From: Escherichia coli
GTDB lineage: Bacteria > Pseudomonadota > Gammaproteobacteria > Enterobacterales > Enterobacteriaceae
Length of the DNA stretch: 64,000 nucleotides
Direction: 5' to 3' (one strand)
Assembly (NCBI RefSeq): GCF_050920415.1
Contig: NZ_CP169309.1
The notes under the pieces are model-generated. The model saw only the letters and a list, made by a program, of their open reading frames with translations. It had not been told where the DNA came from and made no database searches. The position numbers and the translations under genes were made by a program. Positions 10,441 through 10,640 of the stretch are shown here, piece after piece (position 1 is the first letter of the stretch; the number at the start of each line of letters is the position of its first letter).

Positions 10441-10640
10441 CCGCTTATTCTCAGGGCGGGGCGAAATTCCCCACCGGCGGTAAATCAACTCAGTTGAAAG
10501 CCCGCGAGCGCTTTGGGTGCGAACTCAAAGGACAGCAGATCCGGTGTAATTCCGGGGCCGACGGTTAGAGTCCGGATGGGAGAGAGTAACGATTCTGTCG
10601 GGCATGGACCCGCTCACGTTATTTTGGCTATATGCCGCCA
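10441..10640 (+). promoter_or_regulatory. FMN riboswitch (RFN element, ribB leader)
   Basis: Conserved RFN core AGGGCGGGGCGAAATTCCCCACCGGCGGTAAA...AGCCCGCGAGCGC...CAGCAGATCCGGTGTAATTCCGGGGCCGACGGTTAGAGTCCGGATGGGAGAG directly upstream of ribB. Confidence 0.85.

Follow-up and report, generated by a model that had tools for sequence, protein, structure and literature searches.

The ribB riboswitch of Escherichia coli governs the committed step that provides the four-carbon unit of riboflavin, and it is a validated antibacterial target (ribocil, roseoflavin). It also serves as a model for co-transcriptional ligand sensing and for riboswitch-controlled Rho termination. It has been shown that FMN binds nascent ribB transcripts with a Kswitch of about 176-206 nM (PMC11571811). 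Binding protects helix P1 and a sequestering stem, as seen with a probe against residues 218-227 (positions 10660-10669 of the window, which is the whole stretch of 64,000 nucleotides of E. coli chromosomal DNA, from contig NZ_CP169309.1, that was analyzed here), and it makes the probe region 184-193 more accessible (PMC11571811). RNA polymerase pauses at positions 175, 181 and 247-249 of the leader, corresponding to 10617, 10623 and 10689-10691, and sensing is limited to a transcriptional window that closes as the polymerase proceeds from the pause at 175 towards 247 (PMC11571811). In the same work, the anti*-P1 stem, which competes with P1, was tested through mutagenesis (PMC11571811).

On binding, FMN prevents the initiation of translation, and Rho-dependent termination in the leader lowers the level of ribB mRNA. 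The gene has a Rho termination score of 3.1, and the control is lost in a rho R66S mutant (PMC5499598). In a purified system, the rut site of ribB is opened by the FMN mimic ribocil-C (PMC10085680). When the riboswitch, which is also catalogued as sroG, is deleted, both ribB and the production of riboflavin are derepressed (PMC9885008). The binding of FMN, the repression of translation, the dependence on Rho and the pause sites are thus published experimental results, obtained on a K-12 sequence that is identical to the one described here. The analysis of the window itself concerns the identity of the aptamer, its pairing potential and its cross-species conservation and covariation. The element at 10443-10703 (+) is almost certainly the 5' leader of the E. 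coli ribB mRNA (sroG) with its FMN riboswitch; it is already known, already annotated and has the same sequence as the well-studied K-12 copy.

The FMN aptamer

At gathering threshold, an Rfam scan of the whole window gave five matches, one of which is RF00050, the FMN riboswitch or RFN element, at 10443-10591 on the plus strand. The match scores 120.9 bits against a gathering score of 66.2, spans model positions 1-138 of 138 and is therefore not truncated, and has an E-value of 1.1e-27 for the whole window and 3.3e-29 in a local scan. Among the highly conserved positions of the Rfam consensus (those in upper case), 65 of 66 are matched, and the junction and core nucleotides of the FMN pocket are kept; the sole mismatch is a U to C change at 10462 in the P2 loop. 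The annotation pipeline PGAP places an "FMN riboswitch" at exactly the same bases in three different genomes, including identical ones. The aptamer comprises helices P1 to P6, with P1 formed by 10445-10452 and 10582-10589, and covariation is found in P3, P4 and P5. A permissive local Rfam scan of 9700-11600 returned no other credible match besides RF00050. The sub-threshold matches to AdoCbl-II (10521-10589, 22.3 bits against a gathering score of 36.5), STnc430 and BcKCsr7 were rejected as chance.

The regulated gene lies downstream on the same strand, with 103 nt between the end of the aptamer and the ribB AUG. ribB (10695-11348, +) encodes a 3,4-dihydroxy-2-butanone-4-phosphate (DHBP) synthase of 217 amino acids, recognized from its open reading frame and its match to the DHBP synthase family PF00926 in Pfam (280 bits, E 7e-84); 216 of the 217 residues (99%) are identical to K-12 RibB. 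A preliminary description of this DNA had proposed that an RFN element controls ribB, with an RF00050 scan as the check, and both the score, almost twice the gathering score, and the DHBP synthase gene downstream bear this out. No evidence contradicting the identification as an FMN riboswitch was found. The 282-nt construct of the published work, which ends at codon 10, places its +1 at 10443, the first base of the Rfam match (PMC11571811). This numbering was verified per residue: G149 is 10591, C175 is 10617, G176 is 10618 and U181 is 10623.

Promoter and upstream region

Transcription of ribB probably starts at 10443 from a sigma-70 promoter at 10408-10436 (+), with a -35 box TTGCTG at 10408-10413, a 17-nt spacer and a -10 box TATAGT at 10431-10436. 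The -10 box is located 6 nt before the published +1, and the TTGCyG-N17-TATAGT layout is positionally conserved across about 30 Enterobacterales loci. A generic promoter scan of 9900-11600 found nothing; it missed this promoter because the -35 box matches at only three of six positions, and the promoter was recovered through its conservation across genera.

Further upstream, between the ribB promoter and the ubiK start, lies a block, ATAAACCAGAATTrTkTGAAGC, at 10376-10400, 44-67 nt upstream of the +1. This block is conserved in many genera of the Enterobacteriaceae and may serve as the promoter of ubiK or as the binding site of a regulator. The gene ubiK (yqiC; 10022-10321, -), annotated by PGAP in an identical genome and matching the BMFP family PF04380 in Pfam with 96 bits, encodes a protein of 99 amino acids. 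Its start codon is 121 nt upstream of the riboswitch +1, and 373 bp separate the starts of ubiK (10321) and ribB (10695), in agreement with the earlier proposal of a divergent ubiK sharing a region of about 370 bp. The divergent order of ubiK and ribB is kept in 33 Enterobacterales loci. The interval itself is highly uniform: the 372 bases compared (10323-10694 of the 373 bp) are 100% identical to K-12 MG1655 and O157:H7, and 5425 of 5426 complete E. coli genomes contain the interval, 5390 of them at 99% identity or more.

Expression platform and alternative folds

Downstream of the aptamer, the leader offers mutually exclusive folds, namely a stem over the AUG on the one side and two helices, anti*-P1 and anti-P1, on the other; the alternatives are conserved and do not covary. 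The sequestering stem-loop of the FMN-bound OFF state is formed by 10655-10667 and 10690-10703 (+), with 13 bp and a bulged U10696. It includes the ribB AUG (10695-10697) and encloses the Shine-Dalgarno sequence GAGG (10681-10684) in a weak inner hairpin. This stem is predicted alike by minimum-energy folding, by folding with P1 enforced and by the RNAalifold consensus. The regulatory RNA thus reaches to about 10703. The interval 10441-10640 given for the riboswitch in the preliminary description covers the whole aptamer and the first part of the platform, but ends before the stem at 10655-10703, the Shine-Dalgarno sequence and the AUG.

The anti*-P1 stem of the FMN-free state pairs 10583-10591 with 10617-10625 (+), as mapped from the published positions 141-149 and 175-183 (PMC11571811). 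It is present in the unconstrained minimum-energy fold and encloses a small conserved hairpin at 10597-10613. For the anti-P1 stem, the candidate is a 9-bp complement between 10451-10459 and 10650-10658, the exact register of which is inferred. The minimum-energy fold of the whole leader is not more stable than that of shuffled sequences (z -0.63), as expected of a bistable RNA, so this value says little.

A C-rich, G-poor stretch at 10603-10662 (+), with a C/G ratio of 1.6-1.9, is by its composition a plausible candidate for the Rho-loading (rut) region. It overlaps the published probe region 184-193.

Conservation among Enterobacterales

When species-representative genomes were scanned with the 5' core of the aptamer, at least 120 loci were obtained, and among the 120 matches listed, RibB is encoded 230-370 nt downstream in 50. 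Leaders of similar length from 34 Enterobacterales were aligned. In this alignment, the FMN-bound fold is 99.5% paired and 12 pairs are changed on both sides; the count took in the Rfam pairs, the sequestering stem and the extended P3 and P4. None of 500 shuffles reached either the paired percentage or the number of compensatory changes, and slid controls were at most 52% paired. The Rfam structure was used for these counts because RNAalifold mis-pairs P5 and P6. The covariation is located in P3, P4 and P5; P1, P2 and P6 are invariant and therefore uninformative in this respect.

The platform helices follow a different pattern, with strong conservation and, in the 34-leader alignment, no compensatory changes in the sequestering, anti-P1 or anti*-P1 helices, so that the comparative data neither prove nor disprove them. 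The sequestering stem is 99.8% paired, 11 of its 13 pairs are invariant, and the invariance extends to the synonymous positions of codons 2 and 3. At its one variable position, A10658 is replaced by G in five species and a wobble pair is kept with both alternative partners, which fits a nucleotide shared by two mutually exclusive helices. The ON-state helices are together 96% paired without compensatory change, and the anti*-P1 stem by itself is 93% paired, also with zero compensatory changes; the support for the ON-state helices consists of this conservation and the published mutagenesis.

Two leaders carry insertions in the terminal loop of P3, of 122 nt and 56 nt (L048:4926-5332, +, and L112:9647-9987, -), the former genome being that of an uncultured Pseudocitrobacter. 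The long insert folds as a long hairpin that extends P3 (-57.6 kcal/mol, z -4.9), and the remaining riboswitch is intact. This insert resembles an ERIC-type enterobacterial repeat.

Proposed mechanism and alternative readings

In the proposed model, the six-helix FMN aptamer is formed by the first 149 nt. At high FMN levels, the ligand binds the nascent aptamer while the polymerase is upstream of, or paused at, about 10617-10623, and P1 would be locked. The downstream platform would then be free to form the sequestering stem (10655-10667 / 10690-10703), which would hide the AUG and the Shine-Dalgarno sequence and block translation initiation. The FMN-bound state may also expose an unstructured C-rich stretch, at which Rho could load and terminate transcription in the leader or early in ribB. 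At low FMN levels, the P1 3' strand would pair with 10617-10625 instead (anti*-P1), and the aptamer may engage, with its 5' side, the sequestering stem's 5' strand (anti-P1, for which 10451-10459 / 10650-10658 is the candidate). The start site would then be open, and ribB would be transcribed and translated.

In a purely translational switch, FMN would close the sequestering stem only, and the drop in ribB mRNA would be secondary, caused by Rho acting on the untranslated message without a rut site exposed by the ligand. No part of the platform is more strongly conserved than the sequestering stem, such an indirect mode of Rho action has been documented for E. coli thiM (Bastet 2017), and the rut-like region at 10603-10662 was recognized by its composition. 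However, in the absence of ribosomes, Rho has been reported to terminate the ribB leader in a ligand-dependent manner (PMC10085680; Hollands 2012, as cited in PMC5499598 and PMC11571811), which points to direct control. A switch acting on translation alone is therefore considered unlikely, and the model in which FMN both closes the start site and exposes the leader to Rho is preferred.

Beyond being a by-product, the terminated or processed SroG fragment (about 150-180 nt, from 10443 to about 10620) might have targets in trans, either as an sRNA or as an FMN-dependent sponge; alternatively, the flavin status could be coupled to other genes by the formation of SroG at the pause of the conserved hairpin and U-run. 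The function of SroG is still called unknown (PMC7456131). Such a role is a speculative proposal, for which the chances are judged to be slim.

SroG also bears on a reading modelled on Bacillus subtilis ribD, in which FMN would allow an intrinsic terminator to form, consisting of the hairpin at 10597-10613 and the U-rich CGUUAUUUU, with SroG as the truncated product. SroG is indeed known as a stable leader fragment (PMC7456131), the small hairpin shows some covariation and is followed by a conserved T-run (TTATTTTTT in most genera), and the published pauses at 175 and 181 fall within this T-run. However, the hairpin has only 4-5 pairs and lies about 6 nt away from the T-run, and the T-run itself serves as the 3' strand of anti*-P1. 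Moreover, the terminator scan found no intrinsic terminator on the plus strand of the leader, which makes a mechanism of the Bacillus type very unlikely.

A chance or decayed resemblance, or a small leader peptide such as the 46-aa ORF at 10604-10744, for which short ORFs overlapping the leader and the weak sub-threshold AdoCbl-II match at 10521-10589 could be cited, was rejected, since RF00050 matches over the full model with an E-value of 1e-27, the sequence does not differ from that of a riboswitch proven by experiment, and the ATG at 10604 is located within the loop of a hairpin, is absent from many genera (leaders L018, L020, L023, L028 and L040) and is followed by a frame that indels break. 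The preferred reading thus remains an FMN-responsive OFF switch that acts through sequestration of the ribB start and through Rho.

The terminator downstream of ribB

Between the ribB stop codon (11346-11348) and the stop codon of a converging adhesin-like gene (11402-11404), a palindromic, terminator-like hairpin is present at 11367-11399 on both strands, 18 nt past the ribB stop and 2 nt past that of the adhesin gene. Its core, AAAACGCCGGGA-TAT-TCCCGGCGTTTT, is complementary at 12 of 12 positions, with a 3-nt loop and 8 of the 12 pairs being G-C or C-G. An inverted-repeat search delimited arms of 15 nt each (11367-11381 and 11385-11399) that are 93% complementary. The "perfectly symmetric" bidirectional terminator proposed in the preliminary description is thus symmetric in its 12-bp core, but not over its full arms. 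The hairpin folds with -24.2 kcal/mol on the plus strand (z -6.2) and -21.6 kcal/mol on the minus strand (z -5.5), and no shuffled sequence was as stable. An A-run precedes the palindrome and a T-run follows it, giving tails of T5 on the plus strand and T4 on the minus strand. In the stem of the common E. coli allele, a C-G pair is replaced by T-A, a compensatory change, and analogous palindromes occur at the same place in E. albertii, Citrobacter and Pseudocitrobacter. A bidirectional intrinsic (Rho-independent) terminator is a credible prediction for this palindrome; the generic scan omitted it because its tail rule counts the T-run after the extended A-U stem.

A second hairpin, which is GC-rich (ACGGGCC-GTCT-GGCCCGT), lies at 9992-10009 within the 34-bp gap between the convergent stops of glgS and ubiK and is followed by T5. 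It is shared with K-12, where it lies downstream of glgS. Its T-run is on the plus strand only, so it looks like the glgS terminator.

The fimbrial operon and the two layouts around ubiK-ribB

The gene that converges on ribB (11402-12445, -) encodes a YqiI-like, fimbrial adhesin-type protein of 347 amino acids with 35% identity to K-12 YqiI (E 5e-59); a search for a Pfam family in this protein gave no match. The gene is the last of a chaperone-usher operon at 11402-16370 (-), located between ribB and the yqiD/zupT side, and its operon neighbours match the PapD, Usher and Fimbrial families of Pfam. Judged from sequence and position, it is a homolog of the YqiI family, belonging to a syntenic chaperone-usher operon of four genes, and not the ortholog of K-12 yqiI. 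The K-12 gene is found between glgS and yqiH, whereas that of the window lies between ribB and a chaperone gene. The earlier statement that ribB and yqiI converge therefore holds for the convergence and the family name, but not for the K-12 locus, given the 35% identity and the location on the other side of ubiK-ribB.

The YqiI-like allele is rare: in a megablast search, only 2 of 5426 complete E. coli genomes contained it with an identity of at least 99%, and in one of these it is interrupted by IS2. The remaining genes of the operon share about 88% identity with the common allele. The counterpart of the adhesin gene in strain WP8-S18-ESBL-07 is a pseudogene with an internal stop.

Around ubiK-ribB, two alternative sites for a yqi-type chaperone-usher operon are observed, either the gap between glgS and ubiK, as in K-12, or the gap between ribB and yqiD-zupT. 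The layout of the window, with glgS directly converging on ubiK and the operon after ribB, is found in 2069 of 5426 complete E. coli genomes, and operons of the window type have about 64% nucleotide identity to that of K-12. The adjacency of glgS and ubiK is common to Salmonella, E. albertii and Citrobacter, so that the K-12 layout looks derived. A transposition of the ubiK-ribB block was also considered and dropped, as two alternative sites for the fimbrial operon fit better with the glgS-ubiK adjacency in these taxa. The ubiK-ribB block is homologous to K-12 from 10091 to 11352 only; consequently, the last ~22 residues of UbiK differ (99 amino acids, against 96 in K-12), as does the ribB terminator.

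Other RNAs in the window

Two full-length SIB RNA antitoxin genes (RF00113; 149 and 144 bits) are present at 6450-6599 and 6826-6976 (+). By their position adjoining yqiK, these are sibD and sibE, and an Ibs-family type I toxin gene is annotated near them in an identical genome. At the Rfam gathering level, a match to the sRNA ES173 was found at 44134-44197 (-) with 99 bits, and a match to the nucleoid-associated naRNA4, a REP-derived RNA, at 60907-60983 (-) with 87 bits.

Comparison with known systems

The locus adds nothing new on the riboswitch itself and serves as a positive control for the recognition of structured RNA from raw sequence. What is mildly new in its context is limited to the strain-specific neighbourhood, that is, the other ribB terminator and the rare adhesin allele.

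The FMN riboswitch of B. subtilis ribD (ribDG) shares with that of E. coli ribB the aptamer family, the ligand and the OFF-switch logic on a riboflavin biosynthesis gene. The two differ in their expression platforms, as that of ribD is an intrinsic terminator/antiterminator (PMC11571811), whereas that of ribB combines sequestration of the Shine-Dalgarno sequence and the AUG with Rho, without an intrinsic terminator. With the E. coli TPP riboswitches thiM, thiC and tbpA, ribB shares translational sequestration together with Rho-dependent termination and a pause-bounded, co-transcriptional sensing window. The aptamer and the ligand of the TPP riboswitches are different, and Rho control of thiM is reported to be indirect, through lost translation, whereas that of ribB is reported to be direct.

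The ribB riboswitch of K-12 is the same element, which has the same +1, P1, anti*-P1, pause sites, sequestering stem and PGAP annotation as that of the window. The surroundings alone differ: in the window, glgS converges on ubiK, ribB is followed by another terminator and the fimbrial operon comes after ribB, whereas in K-12, the yqi operon occupies the gap from glgS to ubiK, and ribB has a terminator of its own, after which come yqiD and zupT.
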